Made by a program: the position numbers and the translations under genes | Assembly: GCA_964602865.1 (NCBI GenBank) | Contig: CAZRSX010000003.1 | Coordinates: 1,288 to 65,287 of the forward strand | DNA length: 64,000 bases | Origin: an uncultured Candidatus Saccharibacteria bacterium | GTDB taxonomy: Bacteria > Patescibacteriota > Saccharimonadia > Saccharimonadales > JAGQNJ01 | Direction: 5' to 3' | Shown here: in pieces, positions 956-18,130 of the stretch | Layout of the letters: every line of letters begins with the position of its first letter | Numbering within the stretch: position 1 is the stretch's first letter | The notes under the pieces: model-generated | Told to the model about the DNA's origin: nothing | Database searches by the model: none | Seen by the model: only the letters and a program-made list of their open reading frames with translations

Positions 956-1032
956 CCCGTTAGAGACCTCCAGTCCCGCTAGGAGCTTTTTTTGGCGTAT
1001 ATAGCTTGGCTCTAACGGGATTCATAGGCTTA

Positions 1033-1842
1033 TTATACTCGGTCAGCGTCTTGTAACGCCTTGTACCAAGTGACTGCGATAGTTTTTGAAATAGTCGGGC
1101 CAAGCTTGTGGCGGACGTCATAGACAAGTTTCGTCGACCAGCCGCGCTTGCTAAAGCGGCCGTACATGTCGAGCACCGCGATTTCGCGGGCAGCGCGCTT
1201 GAAATACTCTGCAACACCAATGTCTGACACGAGATCTATGTCTTCCTCAGTCAGAGCGGCCTCTTTCATGCTGAGCGGTGCGATAATGGCCGCCACCCCT
1301 AGCTCAAACATGCTGTGCAGACTTATCAGCCCCTTTGGCCCCCAGACCTTCCAGGTTTTGGTGAGCTTTTCGCGCTTCGTATCGCCGGGTGGAAACCACT
1401 TCTGCTTGACCGTTGTACGGTTTTCGATACCGTGCCCCCAAATCTCTTCCAGCTCCGCCTCGTACGGATAGTGATGCGCCGGGGTCAGCCCGTCAACGAT
1501 GGCGTGGGACAGCCAAGCAGCTTCGAACGCCACCCGCTCTTGGTTGCCGCTTTGTAGCTCCTTTACCAGCGCGTTATAGTGTCCGGTAATCAGTTCAAAA
1601 ATCTGCGAATCATTATCGTCAAACGGGCTGTAGTAGTGCCAAGGCTCGTCTTTGGCCGGACTTTTGCGCTTGATAGCGTCCGGGCCTTTATTGCCCTCAA
1701 AATGAATGATGCGGCGAGCCGAGGGAAAGACATCATCGTCAACACCAAGCCGCTCAAGATGTTTGCGCGCCACGCGGTCGAGTTTTTGGTGTGCGCCGAC
1801 AATGTTGCCCGAGAACGGTGTGAGCGTTGTGCCGCTATACAT
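1033..1842 (-). CDS. hypothetical protein, His-rich motifs (possible metal-dependent hydrolase, phospholipase C / P1-nuclease-like)
   Basis: 269-aa ORF with a GGAG SD 6 nt upstream. Motifs WLSHAIVDGLTPAHH and HYYSP hint at a zinc-hydrolase fold, but I do not recognise a family with certainty. Confidence 0.6.
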   Translation of the reverse strand: MYSGTTLTPFSGNIVGAHQKLDRVARKHLERLGVDDDVFPSARRIIHFEGNKGPDAIKRKSPAKDEPWHYYSPFDDNDSQIFELITGHYNALVKELQSGNQERVAFEAAWLSHAIVDGLTPAHHYPYEAELEEIWGHGIENRTTVKQKWFPPGDTKREKLTKTWKVWGPKGLISLHSMFELGVAAIIAPLSMKEAALTEEDIDLVSDIGVAEYFKRAAREIAVLDMYGRFSKRGWSTKLVYDVRHKLGPTISKTIAVTWYKALQDADRV

Positions 1843-1857
1843 ATGAGACTCCGCCTC

Positions 1858-1892
1858 TGGAAATCGGAAAATGGAAAACGGAAAACGGAAAA
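1858..1892. repeat. five tandem 7-bp units YGGAAAW (TGGAAAT CGGAAAA TGGAAAA CGGAAAA CGGAAAA)
   Basis: Read directly from the sequence. Lies 16-50 nt upstream of the ATG at 1842 (minus strand), between the recG stop and the SD of the 269-aa gene. Confidence 0.9.
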
Positions 1893-1936
1893 TTTGTTAT
1901 TGATAGGTCCGTATTCTTCATTCTTGTTTCAAATTT

Positions 1937-3973
1937 CTAGTTGAGGTGGTTTATTTTTTGTAAGTTTCTGATCCGCTTTTGCAATCCTTCGTATTGTAGC
2001 AGATTTTCAGGTGTTTGGGCAGCCTGGATCGCCGCGTCGCGCGCTTCTTTGATGAGTGCTGTATCTGATAGGGACACCAGGCGGAGGTCTAGATCTCCGT
2101 GCTGGCGGTTGCCGTAAATGGCGCCCGGACCACGCAGCTCCATATCAAGTTCGCTGAGGCGAAACCCATCGGTGCTTTGTTCGATAGCCCGCATACGTTT
2201 ACTTGGCGCGTTTGAGTCGCTCAAAAGCAAGTAGCAATAGCCTTGCTCAGTGCCGCGTCCAACTCGGCCGCGCAACTGGTGCATTTGCGCCAGACCAAAG
2301 CGTTCTGGCGATTCAATCAGCATGATCGTAGCGTTCGGCACATCAACGCCGACTTCAATTACTGTCGTAGCCACCAGAATATCTATTTTGCCGTCCACAA
2401 AGGCCTGCATAATCTTTTGCTTAGCCTCAGCGTTTTGCTTACCGTGCAGCACAGCGATACGTCGCTTTGGAAAGGCCGCACGTATTTCTTCTGCAGCCTC
2501 ATCCACAGATTTTGCCGGCATAAGGTCAGACTGCGAAATAAGCGGGCAGACCACGAACATCTGCTGTTTTTTGCCCAAAAGCTTGTCAATATCCTGATAC
2601 AATTTCTCGCGCTTGGCTGGTGTTACCAGCTTGGTGATAACGGGTTTTCGCTGTTTGGGCTTGTGCCGCAAAATAGAAATATCCAGCTCGCCATAGACGG
2701 TCAGCGCAAGGCTCCGCGGGATAGGGGTGGCCGTCATACTCAACATGTGCGGAAAGCGATTAGCTTTTTTGAGTAAGATTTTGCGCTGGTCGACGCCGAA
2801 ACGGTGCTGTTCGTCAATGATTACCAGAGCAAGTTTTGGCATATCGACTTTTTCTTGTATAAGCGCATGCGTACCAACGATCAGCTGCGCCGAGCCGTCT
2901 TGAATACGTTTGTAGGCCGCTTTTTTCTGCGTCGAGCTCATGCTGCCAACCAGCAATAAAACCCGCTTGTCTTGACCCAAAGGTTTAAGCAGCTCGACCA
3001 ACGTATCGGCGTGCTGTCGGGCCAGCAGTTCGGTCGGCGCCATGAACGCCACTTGCAACGGCGAGGCATGCATGACCATGGCTGCGGCCATAGCGGCGAC
3101 AGCTGTTTTGCCAGAACCGACGTCGCCCTCTAATAATCTGTTCATAGGGTGCGCCTGCTCAATATCCTGATAGATTTCCCAGACCGCGGAGCGCTGCGAA
3201 TCAGTTAGGTCAAATGGTAAATGTTTCACCATAGTCTTTGCCAGCGCCACATCAAACGGAATCGGCAACGCCGCCTCACGCAGGGTTTCTTGCTTCAATA
3301 ACTGTGCTGCCAGTATCAGTTCAAAGACTTCTTCAAAACCCAAACGCCGCTTAGCTCGCGACAAATCATCCAGTGTCTTTGGGAAGTGTATCAGCCGCAA
3401 GGCCTCGCGCTTATCAATCAGCTCGTGTTTCTTTTCTATTTCTGCCGGCAAAGTCGTTTCAATCGATGCGATAGTCTGAAACGCTGTTCTGAGTACTCTG
3501 CGTATTTCTGACGATTTGATCTCCTTGTGCTCGCGGTAGATAGGCACAATCCGCGCCGTATTCACCGGAAAGCTGCTGACCAATTCCATGCTGGGGTTTT
3601 GAATGGCAAACTGTTGGCGTTTCAGCTCCAGCGTGCCGGAAACAAAATAGTCTTCGCCACGCTTGATGGCCCTTTCGCGGTAGGGCTGGTTAAACCAGAC
3701 AATGCGCACGCTCGAAGTTTTGTCACTGGCAACCGCTTCAGTAATATGCAGTCCCCCGCGTATCCAACGACCTTTAACTTGCTTCACCTGCGCTCGAATT
3801 GACACGGTGCCTGGACGAAGTTTATTGATTGGCTGAATATTGGCAAAATCCTGATATTTCTTTGGGTAATACAATAGCAAATCTTCAACTGTAACCACGC
3901 CAAGCTTCTTCAGCTGTTTGGCCAACTCCGGCCCCACACCCTTCAATACTTCAACAGAATCTGTCGGCTTCAC
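1937..3973 (-). CDS. recG: ATP-dependent DNA helicase RecG
   Basis: 678 aa. N-terminal wedge/OB region, Walker A GDVGSGKT, DEQH box (IIDEQHRFG), and C-terminal helicase motifs QLRGRVGRG. GTG start at 3973. Confidence 0.9.
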   Translation of the reverse strand: MKPTDSVEVLKGVGPELAKQLKKLGVVTVEDLLLYYPKKYQDFANIQPINKLRPGTVSIRAQVKQVKGRWIRGGLHITEAVASDKTSSVRIVWFNQPYRERAIKRGEDYFVSGTLELKRQQFAIQNPSMELVSSFPVNTARIVPIYREHKEIKSSEIRRVLRTAFQTIASIETTLPAEIEKKHELIDKREALRLIHFPKTLDDLSRAKRRLGFEEVFELILAAQLLKQETLREAALPIPFDVALAKTMVKHLPFDLTDSQRSAVWEIYQDIEQAHPMNRLLEGDVGSGKTAVAAMAAAMVMHASPLQVAFMAPTELLARQHADTLVELLKPLGQDKRVLLLVGSMSSTQKKAAYKRIQDGSAQLIVGTHALIQEKVDMPKLALVIIDEQHRFGVDQRKILLKKANRFPHMLSMTATPIPRSLALTVYGELDISILRHKPKQRKPVITKLVTPAKREKLYQDIDKLLGKKQQMFVVCPLISQSDLMPAKSVDEAAEEIRAAFPKRRIAVLHGKQNAEAKQKIMQAFVDGKIDILVATTVIEVGVDVPNATIMLIESPERFGLAQMHQLRGRVGRGTEQGYCYLLLSDSNAPSKRMRAIEQSTDGFRLSELDMELRGPGAIYGNRQHGDLDLRLVSLSDTALIKEARDAAIQAAQTPENLLQYEGLQKRIRNLQKINHLN

Positions 3974-3980
3974 AGATTTT

Positions 3981-3986
3981 AGTATA
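3981..3986 (-). promoter_or_regulatory. -10 box TATACT, 7 nt upstream of the recG GTG start
   Basis: Minus strand: GCGTATACT-AAAATCT-GTG. No SD. Confidence 0.45.
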
Positions 3987-4018
3987 CGCTACTTAAAAGC
4001 AGGACTGTTCGGTGTGCA

Positions 4019-4840
4019 CTAGCTGGCTTTTTTGACGAGCAAGAACACGCTCGGGCCAAAATAAGTTTTGGCCAGGGTTGGCTGCAGAAATCGCTCCACC
4101 GACAACATCGCGCTGGCTGGGATGATTTTCTTCAGCGTGGGCGAACGCAAGTTTGACACTGACAGAACTTTTTCAACTTTTAGTCCAGCGTGCGCCAGCT
4201 GTTTGATAACAGTCTTCGGGTTGTGGTTCACAAAGGCGATTTCATCATCTCTCTTGTTCTGTTCGCTTCTGATATCAACCGGATTGGTCGGGAGTTTTTT
4301 GAGCTTCACTGCATGCTTCAACCGATTACGGCCATGAGCATAGTTGGCGATCTCAAGGATAAACACGCCGTCGTCTTTGAGTACGCGGGCAATCTCGCTG
4401 AACTCCAGGCTGGGGTCTGGCAAATGGTGCATGACACGAATCATGGTAATAAGATCGAGCGAATCATCTCTGAAACGCAAATCATCGGCCTGCATCAGTT
4501 GCTGGTCAATCTTGGGATAGTCTTTGAGAAAATCTTTGGCAATGTCCAATTGCTGTTTGCTGGGTTCGGCTAATGTCACCTTGTCGGCGTAGTCCTGCAG
4601 CAACACACACAAACGCCCGTAGCCGCCACCGATATCTGCAGCAGACTTGTAGTGCTTGCCTTTCAGTAGCCGCTTGATAGCAATCTCTTCACTGGCGTGC
4701 TCATAATCGCGGCCTGCCCAGTAGTCGCGGTAGTTATGCTTTGGGTCATTATATTGGTCGGCTTTACGCGATGCGCTTGTTTGCCGACGACTGGAGCCGG
4801 ATGGTTTTTTGGTTCGTGTGTTTGATTTAGATTTTGTCAT
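4019..4840 (-). CDS. class I SAM-dependent methyltransferase with basic N-terminal tail
   Basis: 273 aa. Motif I DIGGGYGR and a downstream acidic loop (LAEPS). Substrate unknown. Confidence 0.8.
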   Translation of the reverse strand: MTKSKSNTRTKKPSGSSRRQTSASRKADQYNDPKHNYRDYWAGRDYEHASEEIAIKRLLKGKHYKSAADIGGGYGRLCVLLQDYADKVTLAEPSKQQLDIAKDFLKDYPKIDQQLMQADDLRFRDDSLDLITMIRVMHHLPDPSLEFSEIARVLKDDGVFILEIANYAHGRNRLKHAVKLKKLPTNPVDIRSEQNKRDDEIAFVNHNPKTVIKQLAHAGLKVEKVLSVSNLRSPTLKKIIPASAMLSVERFLQPTLAKTYFGPSVFLLVKKAS

Positions 4841-4850
4841 ACAAATGATG

Positions 4851-4856
4851 AGTATA
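4851..4856 (-). promoter_or_regulatory. -10 box TATACT, 10 nt upstream of the methyltransferase ATG
   Basis: Minus strand: GTGTATACT-CATCATTTGT-ATG, inside the 22-nt gap after tyrS. Confidence 0.45.
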
Positions 4857-4862
4857 CACTAC

Positions 4863-6110
4863 TTAGCTTTTTAACAATACTTGGGTATTTTTACCACGCC
4901 GGAGCACCGCATAGCCGTGCACAAAGTCGTCTTTGTGGAGCGTCGTTTTATCTGCTGGGGCTTTTTGGCCGTTGATATAAACCGCGCCGCTTTGCACGAA
5001 ACGGCGGGCTTCTGTATTCGAACCAGCAAGACCGCTACTAACCAGTGCTGGAACAAGTTCGATGCCTGGGCCAAAGTGATGCACTGACAACTGCGTTTCC
5101 AGTTTCTTAAAATCCGCTGCAGCGAACTCGGCATATTCGCTCGAACCAAAAATGACTTTCGCGCTCTGCTTTTTGGCCTCTGCCTCACCATGTACCAGCT
5201 TGGTAACCTCAAAGGCAAGTGTCTTTTGCGCCAAACGGCTTGCTTTGTCACGAGTGAACTGCGCCATAATTTCATCAATCTCGGTTTTCGATAGTTCGGT
5301 GTAAATCTTGAGGTAATCTTCGCAACCGTCATCATCAACATTGAGCCAAAACTGGTAAAACTCGTACGGACTCGTTTGCTGAGCGTCCAGCCACACCGCG
5401 CCGTCTTCAGATTTGCCAAACTTCTTACCGGTTGTTTTGTTGATAATAAGCGGTGTTGTCCAGACATGCACCTCTTTACCAGTCTTGCGTCGAATCAAAT
5501 CCACGCCGGCGATACTGTTACCCCACTGATCAGCGCCACTTAATTGCAATGTCACCTCATGTTTTTCAAACAGATGTAAAAAGTCGTAGCCTTGGATTAA
5601 CGAGTAGCTAAACTCCGCATAGCTGATACCGGCGCCATCTTCACCCAGTCGTGACTGTACAAAATCGCGAGCCAGCATCTGACGCATCGGCACATGCTTG
5701 CCCACATCGCGTAAAAATTCCAGATAGTTCATGTCTTTAAACCAGTCGTAGTTATCGACAACTTTAAAGTCTTCACCTTTAAAAATTTGCTTGTACTGCG
5801 TAGTGATTGCAGCTTTATTTTTAGCAATTTCGTCCAAAGTTTTCAGATCGCGCTCTTGTGCTTTACCATCCGGATCACCAATGAGGCCTGTCGCGCCGCC
5901 AACCAATAAAATTGGCTCGTAGCCATGTTTTATAAACACGCGAACCATCATCGCAGCCGCCAGGTTGCCGATTTGCATCGACGGCGCGCTCGGGTCTACA
6001 CCCCAATAAAATGTTCTCGGAGCTTTATCCAGGTCTTTGATGGCCGAGAACGTCGTCTGGTTCACAAACCCGCGCCATTGTAGTTCTTCTGATAAGGTCA
6101 TTTGTTTCAT
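4863..6110 (-). CDS. tyrS: tyrosine--tRNA ligase
   Basis: 415 aa. Class I signature region (PSMQIGN in the HIGH position), KFGKS (KMSKS-type loop), and a C-terminal S4-like domain (RRFVQSGAVYINGQK). AAGGAG SD lies 5 nt upstream. Confidence 0.92.
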   Translation of the reverse strand: MKQMTLSEELQWRGFVNQTTFSAIKDLDKAPRTFYWGVDPSAPSMQIGNLAAAMMVRVFIKHGYEPILLVGGATGLIGDPDGKAQERDLKTLDEIAKNKAAITTQYKQIFKGEDFKVVDNYDWFKDMNYLEFLRDVGKHVPMRQMLARDFVQSRLGEDGAGISYAEFSYSLIQGYDFLHLFEKHEVTLQLSGADQWGNSIAGVDLIRRKTGKEVHVWTTPLIINKTTGKKFGKSEDGAVWLDAQQTSPYEFYQFWLNVDDDGCEDYLKIYTELSKTEIDEIMAQFTRDKASRLAQKTLAFEVTKLVHGEAEAKKQSAKVIFGSSEYAEFAAADFKKLETQLSVHHFGPGIELVPALVSSGLAGSNTEARRFVQSGAVYINGQKAPADKTTLHKDDFVHGYAVLRRGKNTQVLLKS

Positions 6111-6256: not shown

Positions 6257-9199
6257 ATGAGTAGCAAACGTTCCCGCGGGAGCAAAAACCGCTTCACCAC
6301 TCGAAGCGGCAATACATTTAAGGTGCGTCGCAGCTTGTCTGACAGATTCAAAATCCGCAAAGATCAAAAATCACGCCGCAGAGCCGAACGCATGGCCGGC
6401 ATGCCCAAAGGCCGCGTCCAACGGTTTTTCTGGCGGCTACACCCAAAACGACTGAAAGAGTACTGGTTTTCGCGCGACGGCGGCATTATGGCGCTCAAAA
6501 TTATGGGCATCGGCTTTATTGTTGGCTTTATCTTTCTGGTCGGCCTGTTTGCTTACTTCCGCAAGGATTTACCTGATCTTCGTAACATCTCTGGTGACAA
6601 TATAGGCGGCAGTATTCGCTACTATGACCGAACCGGCAAAACCCTGCTCTGGGAAGATTACGACGCCGTGAAACGAATCCCTGTCGAGGATGAACAGATA
6701 TCGCAATACATGAAAGATGCCACCGTGGCACTGGAAGACAAAGAGTTCTTTAATCATGGCGGCTTTGACCCCAAAGGCATCACGCGTGCTGCCTGGGCCA
6801 ACTTCACCGGTGGCACAACCAGCCAAGGCGGCTCGACGATTACCCAGCAGCTGGTCAAGCTGACACAGAACTGGACACAGGAACGCACGTACACCCGTAA
6901 AGTCAAAGAAGTTATTCTTGCGGTTGAGTTAGAGCGAAGTTACTCCAAACAAGAAATCTTAGCTGGCTACCTCAACACCGCGCCGTACGGTGGCATCGAG
7001 TACGGTGTTGAAGCAGCTGCCCGCGGTTATTTTGAAAAAACCGCCAAAGACCTGACGCTAGACGAAGCTGCGTTCCTGACCGCTATCCCACAGTCGCCGC
7101 GTTATTATTCGCCGTACAGTGGTGATTTCGACAAAGGCATGCTGGTAGGTCGGCAGCATTACACGCTCGATCTGATGCAACAACAAGGTATGATTACAGC
7201 CGAAGAGCGGGACGCTGCCAAAAAAGTCGACACCGTCAAGAAAGTCAAGCCGCGCAAACCAAAGTATGACGGCATCCTGGCGCCCTGGTTTGTGTTGACC
7301 GCAAAAGAACAGCTGGAACAAGAAATCCTAAGCGGCGAGACGTCGAACGTCGGCGGCTGGAAAGTTACCACCACGCTCGATATGAAGCTGCAGAAGCTGG
7401 CCGAAGAACAAGTCAATAATGGTATCCGCCAAGTATATAACCAGCGCGGCGACAGCGCTGCATTCGCCGCCGAGGATGTTGAGACCGGCCAAATGGTGGC
7501 GCTGGTTGGCGGCTCTGACTTTGGCAATGAAGAATTTGGGCAGAACAACTATGCTCGCTTGCGGCTGCCACCAGGGTCAAGCTTCAAGCCGTACGACTAT
7601 GCAGCACTGATTGAGGGCACAACGAATCACGGCGCTGGTTCGGTACTGTACGACACGCAAGGACCGCTGGAAGGCTATCCATGCACCAACAAAGCCCGGC
7701 CAAAACAAGGCGGCAACTGTCTCTTTAACTACGACTTCCGCTATCCTGGCCCGCTAACGCTTCGCTACGCACTGGGTGGTTCGCGTAACGTTCCAGCCGT
7801 CAAAGCAATGCTGATCGCCGGTGTCGATAAAACCATCGATACTGCCAATAAATTAGGCTTAAAAAGCGGCTATAAGTGTTACCGTCCGGAGCTGGAAGAT
7901 GTTAACGCCGCTACCTCTGATGACGAACAGTCCTGCTATGCCTCATCGGCCATCGGTGATGGCGCCTACCTCAAGCTCGACGAACACGTCCACGCCCAGG
8001 CCTCGCTATCTCGCGGCGGAAAGTACATCCCGCAAACTTACATCTTGAAGATAGAAGATTCCAATACCAAACCGCTCTGGCAGTGGGAGAAAAAAGACGG
8101 CGAACAAGTCATTCGTGAAGATACCGCCTACATCATCAATGATATTTTGAGTGACGCACGAGCAAGCTATATGTCGCGCAAAAACCATCGGTATGGCAAC
8201 TGGAAGTTTGCGCTCAAAACCGGAACTACTAACGATGCAAAGGACGGATGGCTGACCGGCTATTCAAGTAAATACGCCGCCAGTGTCTGGGTTGGCCATC
8301 ATACGCGCCGTATTGAAATGAGCGGTTTCATGGAGAACATGACGCAACCGATATGGAGTGGGTGGATGCAAGGCGCCCATGAAGGACTAGAGGCCAAAGA
8401 TTGGCCAAAACCAAGCAGCGTACAAACCTTGCCGGCCTATGTTGTCAGAAACCATGTTGGTGTTGCCTCAATCGAACCAAGTCCAACAAACGATTTGTTC
8501 CCGTCGTGGTACAAGAACGACAAGCGAAAATCAAACGAAAAGCGTACCATTGATATCGTATCCAATAAGTTAGCAACTGATTGTACGCCGGAACGTGCTC
8601 GTAAAGAAGTCACTGAAACTGCTGCTAACAGCTTCTCGGGCGATCCGTTCGAAGGCGGCGGTGCAGCCGCTTCGGGTGAAAAAGATGACGTGCACAAATG
8701 TAACGATAAAAAACCAACTATCTCCCTGAGCATCAATGGCAATCAGATAACGGTGACCTACGCCCGCGGAACACATCCGCTGTCCAGCGACAAATTCAAA
8801 GGTACAGTGGCAATATTTGTCGGCGGCAAAGAAGTAAAGACCTACCAGGTCAACAACTCAGGCAGTCAGACCTATACCCATACCGGCTCGCCCGGCGCAG
8901 TCACGGCCACGATTGTCGATAGTGTCTTGTACGATGCAACCGCAAGTGGTGGCTCAATAAGCGCAGCATCTTCCCTGACTATCACGAGCGCCAAACGACA
9001 AGGTTTGAACGCAGTATTTATATGGTCAAACGCCACCGGCAACGTCGGCATATACCGCGAAGACAACGACGCCCTGCTCTGTAGTAGTGGTGGCACAACT
9101 TGCAGTGTCAACAACCTCGGTTTAGCGCCAGTTGGAACGGCCGTTTACGCCCGAGATGCTGAAGGCAATACCTCAAGTCCGGTGACGATTACGAACTAG
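6257..9199 (+). CDS. class A penicillin-binding protein (transglycosylase + transpeptidase) with long C-terminal beta-rich extension
   Basis: 980 aa. Basic cytoplasmic tail plus one TM helix. GT51 motifs EDKEFFNHGGFD and GGSTITQQL. Transpeptidase motifs SSFKP, SRN, KTGTT. About 250 extra C-terminal residues with no motif I recognise. Confidence 0.9.
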   Translation: MSSKRSRGSKNRFTTRSGNTFKVRRSLSDRFKIRKDQKSRRRAERMAGMPKGRVQRFFWRLHPKRLKEYWFSRDGGIMALKIMGIGFIVGFIFLVGLFAYFRKDLPDLRNISGDNIGGSIRYYDRTGKTLLWEDYDAVKRIPVEDEQISQYMKDATVALEDKEFFNHGGFDPKGITRAAWANFTGGTTSQGGSTITQQLVKLTQNWTQERTYTRKVKEVILAVELERSYSKQEILAGYLNTAPYGGIEYGVEAAARGYFEKTAKDLTLDEAAFLTAIPQSPRYYSPYSGDFDKGMLVGRQHYTLDLMQQQGMITAEERDAAKKVDTVKKVKPRKPKYDGILAPWFVLTAKEQLEQEILSGETSNVGGWKVTTTLDMKLQKLAEEQVNNGIRQVYNQRGDSAAFAAEDVETGQMVALVGGSDFGNEEFGQNNYARLRLPPGSSFKPYDYAALIEGTTNHGAGSVLYDTQGPLEGYPCTNKARPKQGGNCLFNYDFRYPGPLTLRYALGGSRNVPAVKAMLIAGVDKTIDTANKLGLKSGYKCYRPELEDVNAATSDDEQSCYASSAIGDGAYLKLDEHVHAQASLSRGGKYIPQTYILKIEDSNTKPLWQWEKKDGEQVIREDTAYIINDILSDARASYMSRKNHRYGNWKFALKTGTTNDAKDGWLTGYSSKYAASVWVGHHTRRIEMSGFMENMTQPIWSGWMQGAHEGLEAKDWPKPSSVQTLPAYVVRNHVGVASIEPSPTNDLFPSWYKNDKRKSNEKRTIDIVSNKLATDCTPERARKEVTETAANSFSGDPFEGGGAAASGEKDDVHKCNDKKPTISLSINGNQITVTYARGTHPLSSDKFKGTVAIFVGGKEVKTYQVNNSGSQTYTHTGSPGAVTATIVDSVLYDATASGGSISAASSLTITSAKRQGLNAVFIWSNATGNVGIYREDNDALLCSSGGTTCSVNNLGLAPVGTAVYARDAEGNTSSPVTITN

Positions 9200-10536
9200 A
9201 TCTCCAGAAAGGTGTTCAGTGCAGTGCGCACGTCTTTAACGGCGACTAGAAAACTGTCTGTTTTGTTATCACGCTGCCGTGGTCCGATAGCCGCATCAAA
9301 ACCAAGTTTTTTCGCTTCTGCAATGCGGCGCTCGGCAAATGGCACGTGCCGAACCTCGCCCGACAAGCCAAGTTCGCCAAATACGACGGCGTTTTTCTTC
9401 AGCTTCATCGCTTTGGCGGCCGAGGCAATCGCCATACATACCGCCAGATCAGCTGCCGGTTCCTGAATACGTATACCGCCGACAATGTTGATATAAATAT
9501 CTTGATCAGACAAATTGAGCTTGGTGCGCCTGTCTAGCATGGCCACGAGTAGATTCAGCCGGTTAAGATCAAAGCCGCTGGCGGCTCGCTTGGGGTATCC
9601 ATAGGCCGTCTTGTTGACCAGTGCTTGCACCTCGACCAAGACTGGCCGAGAACCTTCCATGGTCGCCAGTACGACCGAACCATCGGTAATGTGTCGTTCG
9701 GCGAGCAAGGCTTCGCTGGGGTTTTCGACCACGCGCAAGCCCTCCTCTGCCATCTCAAGTATTGCTACTTCGTTAGTCGAGCCAAAACGGTTCTTGGCAC
9801 TGCGGAGTAGCTTGAACCCGCCGTAGCGCTCGCCTTCGAGCTGCAGCACGGCATCGACGATGTGCTCTAATATCTTTGGGCCAGCAATAGAACCTTCCTT
9901 GGTGACATGCCCTACCAAAATAACCGCTGTTTGCGATTGCTTGGCCGCAGCCAGCAGGAGATGCGTGCAGGTTGTAATCTGGCTGACGCTGCCGGCAGAG
10001 CTGGCAACTGCGCTGCTGCTGACCGTTTGGATTGAATCAACGACCACGAGGTCATACTGTTTACTGGCAATTGAAGCCGCGACATCTTCGGCGCTATTAC
10101 TCGACGCAACCACCAGGTTTTTGTTGCTGGCTTTGAGCCGCTGCGCCCGCATGCCGACCTGGTGCGTTGATTCTTCACCACTGACATACAGCACCGTTTG
10201 TTTGCCTGCAACGTTATTGGCAATTTGTAGCAATAACGTACTCTTGCCAATGCCCGGCTCCCCGGCGAGCAACACCACGCTGCCTGGCACAATGCCGCCG
10301 CCAAAGACACCATCAACGTCAGTGATAGCCGTCAGCATGCGTTTCATGTCTTTCTTGGCCGCTTGGGCGCTGGTTTCTGATTGAAGCGCTGTACCAGCCT
10401 TACTCTTGCCATTTGGCGTCGAGGTAACGATCTCTTCAAGGGTGTTCCATTCGCCGCACGAATAGCACTTACCGGACCACGTCGGACTTTCCGCACCGCA
10501 GTTTTTACACACAAATGCACGTTGTTTTTTTGGCAT
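9196..10536 (-). CDS. radA: DNA repair protein RadA
   Basis: ORF track gives 9196..10587. The start is moved to the ATG at 10536 (MPKKQRAFVCKNCG...), which begins with the RadA zinc ribbon CxxC...CxxC and is preceded by TGCTACACT 9 nt upstream. Walker A GEPGIGKST, KNRFG motif, Lon-like C-terminal domain. Confidence 0.9.
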   Translation of the reverse strand: MPKKQRAFVCKNCGAESPTWSGKCYSCGEWNTLEEIVTSTPNGKSKAGTALQSETSAQAAKKDMKRMLTAITDVDGVFGGGIVPGSVVLLAGEPGIGKSTLLLQIANNVAGKQTVLYVSGEESTHQVGMRAQRLKASNKNLVVASSNSAEDVAASIASKQYDLVVVDSIQTVSSSAVASSAGSVSQITTCTHLLLAAAKQSQTAVILVGHVTKEGSIAGPKILEHIVDAVLQLEGERYGGFKLLRSAKNRFGSTNEVAILEMAEEGLRVVENPSEALLAERHITDGSVVLATMEGSRPVLVEVQALVNKTAYGYPKRAASGFDLNRLNLLVAMLDRRTKLNLSDQDIYINIVGGIRIQEPAADLAVCMAIASAAKAMKLKKNAVVFGELGLSGEVRHVPFAERRIAEAKKLGFDAAIGPRQRDNKTDSFLVAVKDVRTALNTFLEI

Positions 10537-10545
10537 ACTAGCTCT

Positions 10546-10554
10546 AGTGTAGCA
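10546..10554 (-). promoter_or_regulatory. extended -10 TGCTACACT, 9 nt upstream of the radA ATG at 10536
   Basis: Minus strand: TGCTACACT-AGAGCTAGT-ATG. Confidence 0.45.
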
Positions 10555-10558
10555 GAAA

Positions 10559-11542
10559 CTACTCAATCCTTGACGGTGTCGAATCAATCGCTTGCATCAG
10601 ATCTTGCACCTCTACCACGAGCGAATTACGCTGCTTCACAAGCCGGTTGTGCCGCTGGATATCACGCCGCGTGGCGTTAACCAGTGCATTATATTCATTG
10701 ACACTACGATTGTAAGCCTCTACCCGTTGGTTATAGGCAACCACATCGCTAACACGAAGCTGATTAAGCGCTGTTCGTTCAGTCATAAGCCGCCCGTTGC
10801 GCTCGCCCAGCAAAGCCTGATTAAATTCAATCTCGATCTTGAGCGCCGTAAGCTGTTTGTCAATTTGCTGCACCCTGTTTTGACGTGAACTAAATTCCGC
10901 TTCGTAGGTTTCTGATAGAGTCACAACTGCTGATCGGTCGGCAAAGTAGCGAGCATAGTACGTTTCAAGCTCGCCTGGTAATTTTCTGACCTCCGTTCCG
11001 AGTATAGAATGAAGCTCGTTCGGCACTGACGCGGGATTATTATCCTGATACTGGGCCACCGTGTCTTTGATGCGCTGATTGTCTAACGTTTTATAGGTGT
11101 TCACGAGCAATGTATTAATCCGTTCGCGTTCGCTTGCGTCCAAACGATCATAAGCCGCATGGAGCATTTCATGAGCGGCAGTCACTTCTCGTATACCTTT
11201 GAGGCGCTTATCTGTCACGTCGAACACAAAGATATTGCCCGAAACAACCAATCCGGAACGACTCACATAACAGCCTAAGATAATCGAGAATTCCTCGATG
11301 TGACAGTTCTGATTAAACGTCTCCGCGTCGGTCACCGCCGGATGCGTGGCGTAGAAAATATGCTGCGCCTCATCGGTCATCGTGGTGATCTCGGCTAGAG
11401 CCGAGACTTCCGCGCTGGGAGCATAATCACGGAGCCGCCACCAGTCGTAGACAGGCTGGCGGAAAAATACGGTCGCCGTAACCGCCAGCACCATGCTGAC
11501 AAAAAACAGGCCGCTGATGATTCGTTTGGAATTAAAACGCAT
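10559..11542 (-). CDS. membrane-anchored protein with HExxH metallopeptidase-like motif and C-terminal coiled coil (hypothetical)
   Basis: 327 aa. N-terminal TM helix (GLFFVSMVLAVTATVFF). HEMLH within VTAAHEMLHAAYDRL. The last ~120 aa are heptad-rich (Q/N/R/L). No family confidently recognised. Confidence 0.7.
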   Translation of the reverse strand: MRFNSKRIISGLFFVSMVLAVTATVFFRQPVYDWWRLRDYAPSAEVSALAEITTMTDEAQHIFYATHPAVTDAETFNQNCHIEEFSIILGCYVSRSGLVVSGNIFVFDVTDKRLKGIREVTAAHEMLHAAYDRLDASERERINTLLVNTYKTLDNQRIKDTVAQYQDNNPASVPNELHSILGTEVRKLPGELETYYARYFADRSAVVTLSETYEAEFSSRQNRVQQIDKQLTALKIEIEFNQALLGERNGRLMTERTALNQLRVSDVVAYNQRVEAYNRSVNEYNALVNATRRDIQRHNRLVKQRNSLVVEVQDLMQAIDSTPSRIE

Positions 11543-11552
11543 ATACCTCTAC

Positions 11553-11558
11553 AGTATA
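11553..11558 (-). promoter_or_regulatory. -10 box TATACT, 10 nt upstream of the ATG of the HExxH protein gene
   Basis: Minus strand: TTCGTATACT-GTAGAGGTAT-ATG. The same TATACTGTAG string occurs before gatC. Confidence 0.45.
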
Positions 11559-11589
11559 CGAAAGTTTTGTCGTACGGGCTACCGGCTAG

Positions 11590-14082
11590 CTATTCGTGGC
11601 TTGCGGCGTATTCGAGCTGCTGTTTCTTGGAGTTGACGGTCAGTATATCTCCTTTTTTGTACGTCTCGTGCAAAAGCTCTGCGGCAATGTGGTCTTCTAG
11701 CGTATCTTGCAGCAGACGCCGCATCGGCCGCACCCCGTTCATAGGATCATAGCCATGCTCAAGCATGTAGTCCTTGGCTTTCTGTGTCAGCTTTATGGTA
11801 ATACCGTGCTTAATCAGCCGTTCTTGCAGCTCCTTGACCTGGAGGTCTAGAATCTTCATAACGTTCGGCTTAGTGAGTGCGTGGAACACAATCATCTTAT
11901 CGATACGATTGATAAGCTCCGGCCGCATCATTTTTTTGAGCTCTTCAAGCACTTTGTCTTTGTTGGCTTCGTGCAGTTTTTCTAGATCATCAAAGTCTTT
12001 GCGGTCGTCAGCGCTGAAGCCCAGCGAGACTTCTTTTTGGAGTTTTTCAGCACCAATGTTACTTGTCATGATGACAATCGTGTTAGTGAAATCGATTTTG
12101 CGGCCTTTGGCATCAGTCAGGCAGCCGTCTTCTAAAATCTGCAGGAGCATGTTAAATACGTCTGGGTGGGCTTTTTCGATCTCGTCGAACAATACCAAAC
12201 TATACGGCTGACGGCGAATTTTGTCAGTCAGTTGACCGCTATCCTCGTAGCCGACATACCCGGCCGGAGCACCCACCAGTCGTGCAACCGTGTGCCGCTC
12301 ACCGAGCTCGCTCATGTCGATTTTGACGAGACTATCTTCACTCCCAAAGAACTCTCGTGCTAGTACCCGGGCCAGTTCAGTCTTGCCAACACCAGTCGGA
12401 CCAAGAAAGATAAACGAACCGATTGGCCGCTTGCCGCTGCTCACACCCGATCGATTACGGCGGATCGCTTTGGCGACAGCCTCAATGGCTTCAGTCTGGC
12501 CAACCACATACTTGCTCAGCGTCTTTTCAAGATTGATAAGATATTTTGCCTCTGAGCGTATGACTTTTTTTGTTGGTACCCCTGTCATACGGGCCACTGT
12601 TTCGGCGACATCGTCACTATTCATGGCGATAGGCTTGGCCTGCTTTTCAGTCGCCTGCAATTTCTTGAGCTCGTCGTGAATCTGGCTGATTCGCTGCTTA
12701 TACCGAGCAGCTTTTTCGTAGTCGCTCGTATCGGCAGCTTCTTCCATCTGGACATTGACCAGCTTGAGTTCTTTCTGGAGTTTGCGCACCTCAGGCGGTG
12801 TGCGACCCTTATCAAGCCGTAGATGGGCAGCCGTTTCGTCCAAGAGATCAATAGCCTTGTCTGGCATGAATCGGTCGTTCACATAGCGTTTGGCAAAGGC
12901 AACAGTATCCTCAACAACCTCATCGCTGATGGTTACCCCATGAAATTCTTCGTAGTGCCTCCGTAACCCTTTGAGGATAGCTGTGGTCTCGGGTACGGTG
13001 GTCTCGGGTACCTGAATTGGTTGTAAGCGACGTTCCAGGGCGGCATCTTTTTCGATGTGTTTGGTGTACTCGGTGGTGGTGGTTGCGCCAATCATCTGGA
13101 TTTTGCGGCGGGCCAAAGCTGGTTTTAAGATGTTGCCGGCATCCATGGCGCCTTCGGCCGCCCCGGCGCCTACGATCAGATGCAGCTCATCGATAAAAAT
13201 AATATTGTTCTTGTCGCGTTCCAACTCAGCCATGACCTTTTTCAACCGATCCTCGAATTCACCGCGATACTTTGTGCCGGCAATCATACCGGCAAGATCC
13301 AGCATGATGATGCGCTTATCGAGCAAACTATCCGGCACTTCTTCGTTCACAATACGCTGTGCTAGTCCTTCAACGATTGCCGTTTTACCCACACCAGGCT
13401 CACCAATAAGCACTGGGTTGTTTTTGGTTCGACGGTTCAGTACGGTAATAACTCGTCGTACCTGGGCGTCGCGGCCTACGACTGGGTCAAGCTTGCCCTC
13501 GCGTGCTTGTGCTGTCAGGTCGGTGCCGAAAAAATCTAGGGCTGTTTTGCGCGCCTTCTTAACGCGTCGTTTGGCAGCAGTGCCACCAGCGCCGGTACTA
13601 CCGCTGTCTTCAAATTGTTGACGGTTAAGGAATTGCTCCAGCTCGCTATTGACTGCGTCGACATTGACATTCATATCCCGCAGTAATGTCGTGGCTCGTG
13701 CATTCTTTTGGCTCAAAATACTGTACAAGATGTGTTCTGTCCCACAGTAATCCTGGCCGAAATCCTGGGCAATGTCGTAAGCCATCTTGAGCGTCAGTTT
13801 AGCCGTTTCAGACAAGCCCTTACCACCCATATTCATAACGAGTGTTTTTGGCGTCAAATTCAGGGCTAAACGTGCTCGATCAAGTGTAATCCCGGCACCC
13901 TCAAGTATTTTGGCTCCCATAGAGCTCTGCTGCGCCAGAACACCGAGCAATAAGTGCTCTGTGCCCACGTACGGACTGCCGCTGGTGCGCGCAATCGTAT
14001 CTGCATGGCGTAAACTATGCAGCGCATTATCAGTTAAGTGGTTCAAAAAATCTTGTAAGTCGTCTGAGCTTGGTATCATCAT
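11590..14082 (-). CDS. clpC: ATP-dependent Clp protease ATP-binding subunit ClpC
   Basis: 830 aa. Duplicated Clp_N repeats, two AAA+ modules (GEPGVGKT and GPTGVGKT), and a UVR-like linker ([18 protein letters not shown]). Confidence 0.9.
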
Positions 14083-14131
14083 AGCGCTTATTTCCTACCC
14101 TCCAGCGATGTTTGTTATCTATCGCTCCTTC

Positions 14132-14160
14132 ATAATATGCAAGAAATTAGCACTCGTCAA
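14132..14160 (-). promoter_or_regulatory. clpC promoter: -35 TTGACG, 17-nt spacer, -10 TATTAT
   Basis: Minus strand: TTGACG-AGTGCTAATTTCTTGCA-TATTAT. A ~43-nt leader with a GGAGGG/AGGAAA SD precedes the ATG at 14082. The -35 lies inside the CIRCE spacer. Confidence 0.6.
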
Positions 14161-14173
14161 GTCCGAGTGCTAA
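14147..14173. promoter_or_regulatory. perfect CIRCE element (HrcA operator) TTAGCACTC-N9-GAGTGCTAA
   Basis: Plus strand reads TTAGCACTC GTCAAGTCC GAGTGCTAA. Both 9-bp arms match the published CIRCE consensus exactly with the canonical 9-nt spacer. Confidence 0.85.
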
Positions 14174-14235
14174 TTTACGTTTCGGGGCAACCTTGATCTG
14201 CCAGTGCGTTTAGCAGGCCAAGGCGTTGCGTCAGG

Positions 14236-15426
14236 TTACTCACCGTGTTGCTCGATGGCGTCGAGCAGTGAACTTTCGAGTTCTGATTTTTTCTTGAGCT
14301 TCTGTACTGGTTTTTTGACCTCTTCGGCAGGAGCTGCGTCTGCACCGCTATGAGGCTCCGCTGCTTTCGCATCATCGCTCGGCTGTTCTTTACGGCCCTC
14401 TATATCAAGTTCATAGCCAGTTAACTTGCTTGCTAAACGAACGTTTTGGCCGCCTCGGCCAATGGCGATGCTCAACTGGTCTTCCGGCACCCGCACAACG
14501 GCCCTCTTGTTCTTTTCGTCAAGCTCGACCGTATCAACTTTTGTTGGACTCAATGCATTGATGATGTAGGTCTTGGAATCCTCGTCCCACACGATAATGT
14601 CGATTTTTTCTTGCTCACCAATCTCGCTCATGACCGCATTGACGCGGGTACCATGGCCGCCGACAAAGGTGCCAACCGGATCAACACCAGGCACAGTGCT
14701 GGCAACTGCTAGCTTGGTGCGCACGCCAGCTTCGCGGGCAATGTCTTTGATAACGACGGCGTCATTTTCCATCTCTGGCACTTCACCGCGGAACAGCCAG
14801 TCAACAAACTCGGTGTTACCGCGCGATACCACCAGCTGCGGACCACGAACACCGCGCTCCACGTCTTTGAGGTAGACCTTAAGCCGCTGGCCCGGATAAT
14901 AATGTTCACCCTGGATCTGTTCGCTGCCCGGCATAATGGCCTGGGCTTTACCCAGATCAACCCGCACCATGCGGCCGTCAACACGCGCCACAATGCCGTT
15001 GATAACGGTACCGATTTTGTCTTCGTATTCGGTCAAAATGTTTTCGCGTTCTGCTTCGCGCAGACGCTGCAAGATAACTTGCTTGGCTGTCTGGGCGGCA
15101 ACGCGGCCAAAGTTCTCGACTTTTTCGTGCACTTCAATAATGTCGCCAACTTTGGCATTTTTTTTCATAGCGCCGGCATCTTTGAGTGAAATCTCGGCTT
15201 TGTCATCAGTAACCGTCTCAACAACTTCTTTGCTGATATAGGCGTCAACATCGCCGTTGTTGAGGTTCATGGTCACACGCACTTCTTGCTCGCGGTCACC
15301 GTAGTCGCGGCGATAGGCCGCCGCCAGAGCCTGCTCAACAATCTCTTGGACTGTTTCTTCTGGTAAGTTTTTTTCTTCGGCGATGGTTCTAACAGCCAAA
15401 GCCAGTTGTTTCATATCTAAATCCAT
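14236..15426 (-). CDS. nusA: transcription termination/antitermination factor NusA
   Basis: 396 aa. N-terminal RNAP-binding domain, S1 domain (GTVINGIVARVDGRMVRVDLG), KH domains (GxxGxxV: AIGRGGQNVRLAS). AAGGA SD upstream. Confidence 0.9.
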   Translation of the reverse strand: MDLDMKQLALAVRTIAEEKNLPEETVQEIVEQALAAAYRRDYGDREQEVRVTMNLNNGDVDAYISKEVVETVTDDKAEISLKDAGAMKKNAKVGDIIEVHEKVENFGRVAAQTAKQVILQRLREAERENILTEYEDKIGTVINGIVARVDGRMVRVDLGKAQAIMPGSEQIQGEHYYPGQRLKVYLKDVERGVRGPQLVVSRGNTEFVDWLFRGEVPEMENDAVVIKDIAREAGVRTKLAVASTVPGVDPVGTFVGGHGTRVNAVMSEIGEQEKIDIIVWDEDSKTYIINALSPTKVDTVELDEKNKRAVVRVPEDQLSIAIGRGGQNVRLASKLTGYELDIEGRKEQPSDDAKAAEPHSGADAAPAEEVKKPVQKLKKKSELESSLLDAIEQHGE

Positions 15427-15557
15427 ATGTTTTCCTTTCGTTAATTTGCATATTCACAATGACGTACATGAGTAGACTGTGAATGAAAAATCCGACCTGC
15501 CGGCCGGATCATTACACACTATCTATTGTACACAAGCCTGTCCTATAAATCAAGCCG

Positions 15558-15566
15558 TGGTAGAAT
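15558..15566 (+). promoter_or_regulatory. extended -10 TGGTAGAAT, 8 nt upstream of the pepN ATG at 15575
   Basis: Plus strand: CGTGGTAGAAT-ACCTTCTA-ATG. No SD. Confidence 0.5.
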
Positions 15567-15574
15567 ACCTTCTA

Positions 15575-18130
15575 ATGAGTAAAACAGCCAAACGATTATA
15601 TGAAGGCTTCCAGCCGGAGCACTATGATGTGTCGTTTACGTTCGACACCGCTGCTATGACATTTTCTGGTACGGTTGTTATCAAAGGCAAAAAAGTCGGA
15701 CGGCCATCCAAAAGAATCACCTTGCATCAACGTGCCCTAGACGTCACCAAAGCTCATATCACCAAGCACGACAAGAAAGGCGACACTGCTATCACGCCCT
15801 CTCGCCTGAACCAACACCACAAACTCGAAGAGGTCCGTATCCACGCCGACTCACTGCTCTACCCGGGCAACTATACGATCGCTGTCGATTTTCAAGGCGC
15901 CATCACCGATGCGATGGTCGGCATCTACCCCTGCTACTTCGAGCATAAGGGCCAAAAGAAATTCCTCATCGCGACGCAGTTTGAGAGCCACCACGCCCGC
16001 GCCGCTTTCCCCTGCATTGACGAGCCTGAAGCCAAAGCTACTTTCACACTCACGCTGCAGACGCCAAAAGATGACGTCGTGCTGTCGAACACCAATCCTG
16101 AAAGCGAAAAAGTATCCGATGCAATCAAAACGACAACCTTTGCGCGCTCGCCACGCATGTCGACGTATTTACTGGCGTTTGTCTTTGGCGACATGCACTC
16201 GGTCGAAGCAAAAACCAAAGACGGCACGCTGGTGCGCTCATGGGCCAGCGTGGCGCAGCCTAAAAAACTGCTCCAGTATTCGGTTGACGAAGCCGTCAAG
16301 GTGCTTGGCTTTTTTAGCGAGTATTTTCAAACGCCGTACCCGCTCGAAAAATGCGACCAAGTTGCCTTGCCGGATTTTGACGCCGGCGCTATGGAAAACT
16401 GGGGCTTGATCACCTACCGCGAAGTTGCCCTTTTGGCTGATCCAGATAACCGTTCCATCACCAGCGAACAGTATGTTTCGTTAGTTGTCGCACACGAGTT
16501 ATCACATCAGTGGTTTGGCAATTTGGTTACCATGAAATGGTGGGATGACCTCTGGCTGAATGAAAGTTTTGCCAGCATTATGGAGCACGTCGCGCTCAAT
16601 AACCTGCACCCGGACTGGCAACAATGGGAAACCTACGCCAGTAGTGATGTTCTGGCAGCCACCTCGCGCGATATCTACAAAGACATCCAGCCGGTCGGTG
16701 TTGAAGTAACTGATCCGGAAATTATCGAAACCTTGTTCGACCCCGGCATTGTCTACGCCAAAGGCGGCCGCCTCATAAAAATGCTGCGCGAGTACATTGG
16801 TGACGATGCCTTCCGCAAGGGTCTCAAAACCTACTTTGAAGCATTCGCCTACAAAAACGCTACCCGTGATGATCTCTGGCGGCACCTGGGAAAAGCCAGC
16901 GGCAAAGATATTCACGGGCTCATGACACCATGGCTGACTCAACCCGGTATGCCGCTCCTGTCGGTGGCGCGATCAGGCGACATGGTCACGCTCACCCAGG
17001 AACGCTACGTGCTTGATGGCGGCAACGACGACACGCGCTGGCCAATCCCATTACTGGCCGGGCGATCTGTCGAGCCAGAAATTATTACTGAAGCATCGAC
17101 CACGCTACAGCAAAAAAACTTCGTACGCTTCAATCAAAACGCCAGCGGCCACTATTTAGTGCGCTACCAGGACAAAGCTGCCCAGACCAAACTACAAGAA
17201 GCTTTTAGCACACAAACCATGCCGGCCGAGGCCCGTATTGATCTGGTTAATACGCTGTACATGCTGGCTCGCCGCGGTGATACGCCGTTAACTGATGCGC
17301 TGCGGCTCATCAGTCAGGCCGAGAACGAGCCGCGTGATAGTGTCTGGTCGCTCATACTGCGTACACTCGGTGCCGCAACCCAACTGACCGAGGGCGACAA
17401 AACTGCCGAAACAGCCCTCAAACACCTCAAAGTTGGGCTCGCCACCAAACAATACCAAAAACTCGGCTGGGACGACGATGCGGCTGACGACCCGAACACC
17501 AAGCAACTGCGCCACACCATGATTGCACTCATGGTGGGTGGCGAGAACCAGCAAGCTATTCAAGAAGCGCTGACACGCTACCAACCAGATACGCTTGAGG
17601 ACATCTCAGCGGAACTTCGCAGTACCATTCTTGGCGCAGCAGTTCGTTTTGGCGACGCCGAGGCTATCGACACGCTGCTGGCTGCCTATCCAAAGGCCTC
17701 GGCAGAACTGCAGCTCGATATCACCTCAGCTGTACTCAGCACGCGTCAGCCTGCCCAAGGCCAAAAGATTCTCGCGACAGCCCTGGGTAAAAGCGGCTTC
17801 GTTCGGCCACAAGACGTCATGCGCTGGCTGGCAATCAGCCTTCGCAACCACCACATTCGCGATGTCGCCTGGCAATTTATGGAAGACAACTGGGCATGGG
17901 TAGAGCAAACTATTGGCCAAGGCAAATCATTTGACTATGTGCCCACCTACGCGGCGGCAGTTATCAGCACACCGGACTGGCAAAAAAAGTACACGCTGTT
18001 TTTCGAACCAAAACTCGAACAGAAGATTCTACGGCACAATATCATTCTGGGACTCGCCGATATCAAAGCTCGTGTGGCTTGGCGTGGTCGCGACGAAGCC
18101 GCCATCAAAACCTGGCTCAAGAGCCTATAA
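15575..18130 (+). CDS. pepN: M1-family aminopeptidase N
   Basis: ORF track starts at a GTG at 15479. I prefer the ATG at 15575 (MSKTAKRLYEG...) with TGGTAGAAT 8 nt upstream. GAMENWG exopeptidase motif and HELSHQWFGN...WLNESFA zinc site. Confidence 0.88.
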   Translation: MSKTAKRLYEGFQPEHYDVSFTFDTAAMTFSGTVVIKGKKVGRPSKRITLHQRALDVTKAHITKHDKKGDTAITPSRLNQHHKLEEVRIHADSLLYPGNYTIAVDFQGAITDAMVGIYPCYFEHKGQKKFLIATQFESHHARAAFPCIDEPEAKATFTLTLQTPKDDVVLSNTNPESEKVSDAIKTTTFARSPRMSTYLLAFVFGDMHSVEAKTKDGTLVRSWASVAQPKKLLQYSVDEAVKVLGFFSEYFQTPYPLEKCDQVALPDFDAGAMENWGLITYREVALLADPDNRSITSEQYVSLVVAHELSHQWFGNLVTMKWWDDLWLNESFASIMEHVALNNLHPDWQQWETYASSDVLAATSRDIYKDIQPVGVEVTDPEIIETLFDPGIVYAKGGRLIKMLREYIGDDAFRKGLKTYFEAFAYKNATRDDLWRHLGKASGKDIHGLMTPWLTQPGMPLLSVARSGDMVTLTQERYVLDGGNDDTRWPIPLLAGRSVEPEIITEASTTLQQKNFVRFNQNASGHYLVRYQDKAAQTKLQEAFSTQTMPAEARIDLVNTLYMLARRGDTPLTDALRLISQAENEPRDSVWSLILRTLGAATQLTEGDKTAETALKHLKVGLATKQYQKLGWDDDAADDPNTKQLRHTMIALMVGGENQQAIQEALTRYQPDTLEDISAELRSTILGAAVRFGDAEAIDTLLAAYPKASAELQLDITSAVLSTRQPAQGQKILATALGKSGFVRPQDVMRWLAISLRNHHIRDVAWQFMEDNWAWVEQTIGQGKSFDYVPTYAAAVISTPDWQKKYTLFFEPKLEQKILRHNIILGLADIKARVAWRGRDEAAIKTWLKSL

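Follow-up and report, generated by a model that had tools for sequence, protein, structure and literature searches.

Which regulator governs the Clp unfoldase in Candidatus Saccharibacteria? In well-studied systems, the operator CIRCE and its repressor HrcA control the groESL and dnaK operons, and clpC is under CtsR in Firmicutes and under ClgR in Actinobacteria. In the 64-kb stretch of Saccharibacteria DNA analyzed here (the window), a palindrome of the CIRCE type is found between nusA and clpC. A sequence-only reading of this DNA had placed an HrcA operator over the clpC promoter and had proposed that the HrcA regulon was rewired to include the Clp unfoldase. In the Candidate Phyla Radiation (CPR), regulation of transcription is almost unexplored; for the Saccharibacteria, in which genetic work has only recently become possible, a textbook operator allows a clear regulon prediction that can be tested.

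A CIRCE element overlaps the predicted clpC promoter

The region of 153 nt between the co-directional genes nusA and clpC contains the sequence TTAGCACTCGTCAAGTCCGAGTGCTAA (Table 1), which agrees with the CIRCE consensus TTAGCACTC-N9-GAGTGCTAA at all 18 specified positions; the perfect match claimed from the sequence alone was thus borne out. The plus strand reads TTAGCACTC-GTCAAGTCC-GAGTGCTAA and the clpC strand TTAGCACTC-GGACTTGAC-GAGTGCTAA, with exactly 9 nt between the two 9-bp arms. No second copy with up to three mismatches was present in the window, and a scan for weaker elements returned as next best only the sites at 4677 and 37810, with four and five mismatches, respectively. By base composition, about 9e-7 perfect elements are expected per 64-kb window, and 0.05 matches with up to three mismatches are expected in shuffled sequence.

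A consensus promoter scan of positions 13700 to 14700 detected a single promoter-like site, matching 10 of 12 consensus positions and consisting of the same hexamers, TTGACG and TATTAT 17 nt apart, that the sequence-only reading had picked out. CIRCE overlaps this site, which is the only sigma-70-like promoter predicted upstream of clpC. Judged by the promoter geometry, CIRCE would span approximately -48 to -22, with its dyad center on the -35 hexamer, and the clpC transcript would carry a leader of about 43 nt. The element is located between the two genes as described, albeit at distances of 64 nt to the clpC ATG (14082) and 62 nt to the stop codon of nusA (14236-14238), each one nucleotide less than the 65 and 63 nt given before. 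An Rfam scan of the window gave no match. Six pairs of a small hairpin at the predicted 5' end of the leader are kept in four close relatives (the window, L001, L201, and L204) with no covariation, and this hairpin may contribute to 5'-end stabilization.

TABLE 1 Features of the clpC region in the window (plain positions) and at related loci (positions preceded by the locus)
Feature	Position	Strand	Description and basis
CIRCE operator	14147..14173		Arms 14147-14155 and 14165-14173; 9-nt spacer 14156-14164; dyad center 14160; perfect consensus match
clpC -35 hexamer TTGACG	14155..14160	-	In CIRCE spacer plus first base of downstream arm; promoter scan
clpC -10 hexamer TATTAT	14132..14137	-	17 nt past -35; promoter scan
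Predicted clpC transcription start	14125..14126	-	6-7 nt past -10; from promoter geometry
Small hairpin AGCGAT-N11-ATCGCT	14104..14126	-	Predicted 5' end of clpC leader; followed by purine-rich GGAGGG/AGGAAA ribosome-binding region
13-bp interrupted hairpin	14190..14224	-	Directly past nusA stop, no U tract; RNA fold of 14120-14240, z = -3.3
clpC-type AAA+ unfoldase gene, 830 aa	11590..14082	-	Pfam/NCBIfam domains, LGF loop, UVR motif
327-aa gene	10559..11542	-	Hydrophobic N-terminal TM segment, HEMLH (HExxH) motif, long coiled-coil-like C terminus
radA	9196..10587	-	TIGR00416 above cutoff; overlaps preceding 327-aa ORF by 29 nt
nusA	14236..15426	-	TIGR01953 above cutoff; upstream neighbor of clpC, same strand
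Start codon 6-9 nt past -10	L003:9950-10010, L004:4500-4560, L005:9960-10020, L206:2951-3003, L207:2956-3003, L182:11213-11260; also L153, L195, L149		clpC or clpP
Tandem CIRCE at dnaK	L123:2960-3031, L188:1309-1381, L208:9460-9532, L210:13224-13300; also L145, L147, L176		Two elements upstream of dnaK
Short hrcA genes	L158, L178, L155, L123, L147, L176, L151, L208, L210		See also proteins P0121-P0240

The downstream gene encodes a ClpC-type unfoldase

Pfam domains of the protein encoded downstream comprise two Clp_N repeats, AAA, AAA_lid_9, UVR (438-469), AAA_2, and D2-small. As is characteristic of the ClpC subfamily of class I Clp/Hsp100 ATPases, the middle domain is short and holds the UVR motif, and a ClpP-docking loop of the (I/L/V)GF type is found as LGF. 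No NCBIfam equivalog scored above its cutoff, the ClpB model aligned in two pieces, and close homologs carry the name ClpC at JGI. On the basis of the domain set and the LGF loop, we therefore classify this protein as a ClpC-type, ClpP-partnering unfoldase.

The 327-aa protein encoded by the next gene had no Pfam or NCBIfam match; its sequence features would fit a membrane metalloprotease that shares its regulation with ClpC. Its gene is probably co-transcribed with clpC, and radA is probably the last gene of a clpC-hyp-radA operon. This gene order is kept in the window, L001, L002, L108, L201, and L204 to L207. In L003, the homolog of the 327-aa gene is situated about 8 kb downstream of clpC; in both L003 and L004, clpP sits between this homolog and radA, and L005 is without the 327-aa gene.

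The element is conserved upstream of clpC in Saccharibacteria

In a one-genome-per-species GTDB collection, the nearest relatives of the window ClpC were found in five Candidatus Saccharibacteria (TM7) MAGs at 48-72% identity, and the remaining matches, at 43-48% identity, all belonged to other phyla, which assigns the window to Saccharibacteria. When the 80 clpC loci from this ClpC-similarity search were scanned for CIRCE with up to three mismatches, the element was detected directly upstream of clpC at 5/5 Saccharibacteria loci versus 0/75 loci of other phyla. Four further loci (L201, L204, L206, and L207), which were fetched via ClpC homologs of 77-87% identity with CIRCE left out of consideration, all have the element upstream of clpC with zero to three mismatches. 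The same holds for all 10 distinct Saccharibacteria clpC loci (the window, L001 to L005, and these four), a set chosen by ClpC similarity alone that covers 46-100% identity, with values between loci down to about 46%. The proposed conservation in relatives was thereby confirmed, with 10/10 in Saccharibacteria versus 0/75 in the other phyla. A set of 14 loci combines these 10 unbiased loci with four from a metagenome scan for the CIRCE pattern, and the latter four are not independent tests.

In an element-anchored alignment, the CIRCE arms are invariant or symmetrically altered in all relatives, and the flanking DNA is unalignable. L002 and L207 share a change in both arms to TTGGCA...TGCCAA, which is the symmetry expected of a palindrome bound by a dimer. 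The promoter hexamers follow the element as well: TTGnnn occurs within the 9-nt spacer in 14/14 Saccharibacteria clpC loci, with TAnnnT 16-18 nt further on. The usual starting point of the -35 hexamer is the first spacer base (+0); L002 (+2) and the window and L206 (both +4) deviate from it, and wherever the hexamer shifts within the spacer, the -10 hexamer shifts by an equal amount. Such coupled shifts are good grounds to regard both hexamers as genuine promoter elements and the operator as wrapped around the -35 hexamer.

Association of CIRCE is with clpC and not with nusA. The end of nusA is 1 kb upstream in L001, L207 has a 168-aa ORF between nusA and CIRCE-clpC, and in L003 and L004 no nusA homolog was detected upstream of CIRCE-clpC.

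In many Saccharibacteria, the start codon of clpC or clpP is only 6-9 nt past the -10 hexamer (Table 1), implying leaderless mRNAs. The window and its closest relatives differ from these loci by their leader of about 43 nt.

Saccharibacteria possess a short HrcA

A Pfam scan of essentially all ORFs of at least 180 aa did not find hrcA in the 64-kb window; from its relatives, we infer that this genome has the gene. The complete Southlakia epibionticum ML1 genome encodes HrcA as SEML1_0720 (729 nt, K03705, PF01628 and PF03444), which precedes grpE and dnaK, and nusA-clpC-hyp-radA correspond to SEML1_0513 to SEML1_0510 in the same order as in the window (PMC10633639 supplements). At the level of the phylum, the hrcA gene on which the proposed control depends is thus present, including in a complete genome with the nusA-clpC-hyp-radA arrangement. 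Tn-seq of S. epibionticum classified hrcA (SEML1_0720) as essential and clpC (SEML1_0512) and clpP (SEML1_0493) as non-essential (PMC10633639 supplementary table), a pattern that would fit toxicity of the derepressed regulon.

When metagenomes were scanned for CIRCE elements whose spacer starts with TTG, 121 sites at 120 loci were obtained. At many of these loci, a short hrcA (217-245 aa) scoring above the Pfam HrcA threshold is located directly downstream, and the winged helix of the L158 protein matches that of T. maritima HrcA (1STZ, E = 3e-16, residues 8-84). Searching with an HrcA profile built from seven short HrcA proteins of the metagenome loci gave at least 8000 scored candidates, all with E<=1e-20 and typically 232-257 aa long, some of which carry the NCBI labels Candidatus Saccharibacteria or Candidatus Microsaccharimonas. 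A tblastn search with a B. subtilis HrcA query had no match at any locus; a CtsR query, as a positive control, did match.

Saccharibacteria HrcA comprises about 235 aa versus about 340 aa in studied HrcAs. The winged helix is retained, but of the 215 positions in the C-terminal Pfam HrcA domain just the final ~110 are left. The protein is thus shorter than the canonical one by roughly 100 residues, and its sensing mechanism may therefore differ. Other groups of short HrcA proteins (L087, L114, and L126 types, about 30% identical) are encoded behind the same CIRCE/-35 cassette and may belong to other CPR lineages.

The same cassette precedes further stress genes

At the labeled Saccharibacteria loci (L208 and L210), hrcA-grpE is preceded by a CIRCE with an internal TTGACA, and two tandem CIRCEs are found upstream of dnaK. 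The tandem elements are spaced about 46-50 nt apart, the first around the -35 hexamer and the second just past the -10 hexamer and the start site. Each of hrcA, dnaK, and dnaJ has its own CIRCE, with up to four elements within about 12 kb. The cassette also precedes dnaJ in L128 and L147.

For clpP, it is likewise located upstream in L003 (a Saccharibacteria MAG of GTDB that was retrieved via ClpC), L146, and L182. In L004, clpP follows the 327-aa gene after 30 nt and is probably part of the clpC operon. The clpP evidence is unbiased for L003 and L004 (2/2, where control in L004 would run via the clpC operon), and L146 and L182 were picked by the CIRCE pattern.

Among the pattern sites, a correctly spaced -10 hexamer was present at dnaK (9/9), dnaJ (5/5), clpC (4/4), clpP (2/2), and short hrcA (15/19), as opposed to long hrcA (1/10) and groES (1/8). 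From this distribution we conclude that the cassette goes with loci encoding short HrcA.

On two metagenome contigs, the cassette was seen in front of a ClpB-like gene without the N-terminal domain (L113, CIRCE at 1554-1580, minus strand) and in front of an Hsp20 gene (L143, 898-924).

Signatures of other clp regulators are absent

The region between nusA and clpC was searched with consensus motifs for CtsR, ClgR (C. glutamicum), HAIR, and sigma-32. No CtsR box (RGTCAAANANRGTCAAA) was detected in this region with up to three mismatches or anywhere in the window with up to one mismatch, and none at any other Saccharibacteria clpC locus. A ClgR-like site was not found in the intergenic region with up to two mismatches, nor were HAIR or sigma-32-like motifs. 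As a positive control, CtsR boxes were recovered at 18 Firmicutes clpC loci of the same data set. In agreement, tblastn with CtsR located ctsR upstream of clpC at 20 Firmicutes loci and matched no Saccharibacteria locus; the gene upstream of clpC in the window is nusA, not ctsR, and the annotation tables of S. epibionticum do not mention ctsR. The observation of the sequence-only reading that no CtsR-type repeat is visible here therefore stands, and it extends to the regulator gene, with box and ctsR missing here and both found at Firmicutes loci.

Proposed control of clpC by HrcA and alternative explanations

We estimate at roughly 85% the probability that the palindrome is a working CIRCE operator through which HrcA would repress clpC, with repression relieved under proteotoxic stress. 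An HrcA dimer on the palindrome would cover approximately -48 to -22 and deny RNA polymerase access to the clpC promoter, so that expression of clpC, and probably also of the co-directional 327-aa gene and of radA, would stay low. Unfolded proteins would titrate GroEL/ES, HrcA would become inactive, and the clpC promoter would open, as would those of hrcA-grpE, dnaK, dnaJ, and clpP, which bear the same cassette in Saccharibacteria. Binding of HrcA at this site, repression by that binding, and control of HrcA by GroEL as in Bacillus are steps that we infer, and all evidence for HrcA control of clpC is comparative. On this comparative evidence, the operator over the clpC promoter and the inclusion of the Clp unfoldase in the HrcA regulon are supported, and the evolutionary direction contained in the word "rewired" stays conjectural. 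The full-text literature yielded no HrcA-binding, transcription-start, or heat-shock expression data for any Saccharibacterium. In the TM7x transcriptome, stable symbiosis was accompanied by a joint increase of a Clp ATPase and clpP, and the Clp genes did not shift with other stress genes between infection stages.

Control by HrcA might be partial or conditional, in the sense that HrcA binds CIRCE but clpC is expressed mostly by read-through from nusA or under a second regulator and is not a true heat-shock gene. We consider this unlikely. The space between the co-directional genes contains no canonical terminator, and read-through could provide HrcA-independent clpC expression; the contrast of essential hrcA with non-essential clpC and clpP in S. 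epibionticum is compatible with such a situation, as are the Clp genes of TM7x, which are out of step with other stress genes across infection stages. However, the promoter embedded in CIRCE is strong by its consensus match (10/12 positions), and it is kept in all relatives, including those without a co-directional upstream gene.

A main role of the inverted repeat as an RNA hairpin for termination or stabilization of the nusA transcript, with an incidental or secondary CIRCE match, appears improbable. Transcribed into RNA, CIRCE can fold into a stem of 12 bp that closes a loop of 7 nt and is followed by UCUUGCAUAUUAU; the -10 region comes next, which gives several relatives a U-rich tail (TTTGTTATTAT). 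Yet in the window only 4/9 pairs of the CIRCE stem are G-C, the loop measures 7-9 nt, and the tail UUUCUUGC offers only UUUCUU, which falls short of an intrinsic terminator with its G+C-rich stem, short loop, and immediately adjoining run of five or more U, and a scan of 13700-14700 called no intrinsic terminator, at CIRCE or elsewhere in this interval. Moreover, the element is found at clpC with nusA distant, separated by an ORF, or undetected upstream, and it also precedes clpP, hrcA, dnaK, and dnaJ at other loci. The suggestion that the CIRCE hairpin doubles as a weak nusA terminator was therefore not upheld. Its arms are conserved base for base and not by compensatory change, which indicates recognition by a protein. 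A separate hairpin immediately after the nusA stop codon (14190-14224), likewise not called by the terminator scan, may be a better candidate than CIRCE for a nusA 3'-end structure. Minor attenuation of read-through by the CIRCE hairpin is possible, but this is not what the element is conserved for.

That a regulator other than HrcA, sharing the CIRCE sequence, recognizes the site is very improbable. Saccharibacteria HrcA is truncated relative to studied HrcAs and its recognition of the site is a prediction, but its winged-helix DNA-binding domain is conserved, as seen in the match to 1STZ, hrcA itself has this site in front of it, just as the autoregulated hrcA operons of classical systems do, and the sequence equals the pan-bacterial CIRCE consensus at every specified position. 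A chance palindrome without function, for which its single copy in the window might speak, is refuted by its conservation at clpC in 10/10 loci, down to about 46% ClpC identity, and by the minute number expected per window, leaving this explanation a negligible probability.

Beyond control of clpC by HrcA at this locus, we favor by a narrow balance a wider role of the short HrcA (about 235 aa) as the single master regulator of the entire protein quality-control network in Saccharibacteria and possibly more of the CPR. It would cover dnaK, dnaJ, grpE, and hsp20 as well as the complete ClpC-ClpP protease through a portable cassette with the -35 hexamer in the CIRCE spacer, often driving leaderless mRNAs, and would fill the place that CtsR, ClgR, or sigma-32 has in other bacteria. 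If true, this could explain why hrcA is essential and clpC and clpP are non-essential in S. epibionticum.

Relation to known regulatory systems

Saccharibacteria share with classical HrcA-CIRCE systems the operator consensus TTAGCACTC-N9-GAGTGCTAA, the repressor family (PF03444 winged helix and PF01628), and an autoregulated hrcA beside grpE. They differ in the target, which is clpC and, in relatives, also clpP, in an HrcA that is about 100 residues shorter, and in the position of the operator, which is centered on the -35 hexamer and upstream of the transcript, whereas CIRCE of B. subtilis sits between the start site and the start codon. The logic of GroEL titration (Mogk et al. 1997, as cited in PMC7737663) is expected to be the same. 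Published surveys describe groESL as the one HrcA regulon member that is constant and place clp genes under sigma-32 (PMC545781), CtsR, or ClgR.

By analogy, the closest precedent is the HrcA regulon of Mycoplasma pneumoniae and other Mollicutes, which includes dnaK, dnaJ, groESL, clpB, lon, pepA, and pip (PMC7737663). M. pneumoniae is also genome-reduced, HrcA is the heat-shock regulator described there, and its regulon includes an AAA+ protease and a disaggregase (PMC7737663). Nevertheless, Lon and ClpB are the targets in that unrelated phylum versus ClpC and ClpP in Saccharibacteria, and neither the cassette with the -35 hexamer in the spacer nor a short HrcA is described for it. The finding in Saccharibacteria hints that the ClpCP protease came under HrcA through genome reduction, in parallel with Mycoplasma and its HrcA targets Lon and ClpB.

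With the CtsR regulon of Firmicutes (ctsR-mcsA-mcsB-clpC, clpP, and clpE), Saccharibacteria have in common the regulated genes, the clpC...radA neighborhood, and the logic of a heat-labile repressor acting on a promoter of the housekeeping sigma factor, but CtsR and its operator are unrelated to HrcA and CIRCE. ClgR of Actinobacteria has the same target genes (clpC and clpP1P2) but is an activator and uses a different motif. The Clp protease of Saccharibacteria is probably controlled by the chaperone repressor HrcA rather than by the regulators employed in other bacteria.

Nothing relevant on HrcA or CIRCE in Saccharibacteria, Patescibacteria, or CPR was found in our literature searches. What is new here is the target gene clpC and the phylum; the operator and repressor are those of the classical HrcA-CIRCE system, and no new type of mechanism is involved. 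Lineage-specific features are the short HrcA and the cassette with the -35 hexamer in the spacer. This CIRCE with its internal -35 hexamer is a compact conserved module by which Saccharibacteria promoters are defined and that might be used as a tool for stress-inducible expression.

Flanking genes of the window

The G+C content of the window is about 50%. An M1-family aminopeptidase gene (pepN-like, 15479-18130, plus strand) diverges from nusA over 52 nt (15427-15478). CIRCE is absent from these 52 nt, and the divergent pepN-like/nusA layout is kept in L001, L002, L005, L108, and L201.

The left end of the window (419-6110) is syntenic with L182 (839-5934), sharing tyrS, a methyltransferase gene, and recG at 50-60% identity and a 178-aa gene. 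In L182, the CIRCE-clpP unit (11213-11841) is located about 5 kb beyond this syntenic block, so that clpP of the source genome may lie just outside the left edge of the window.
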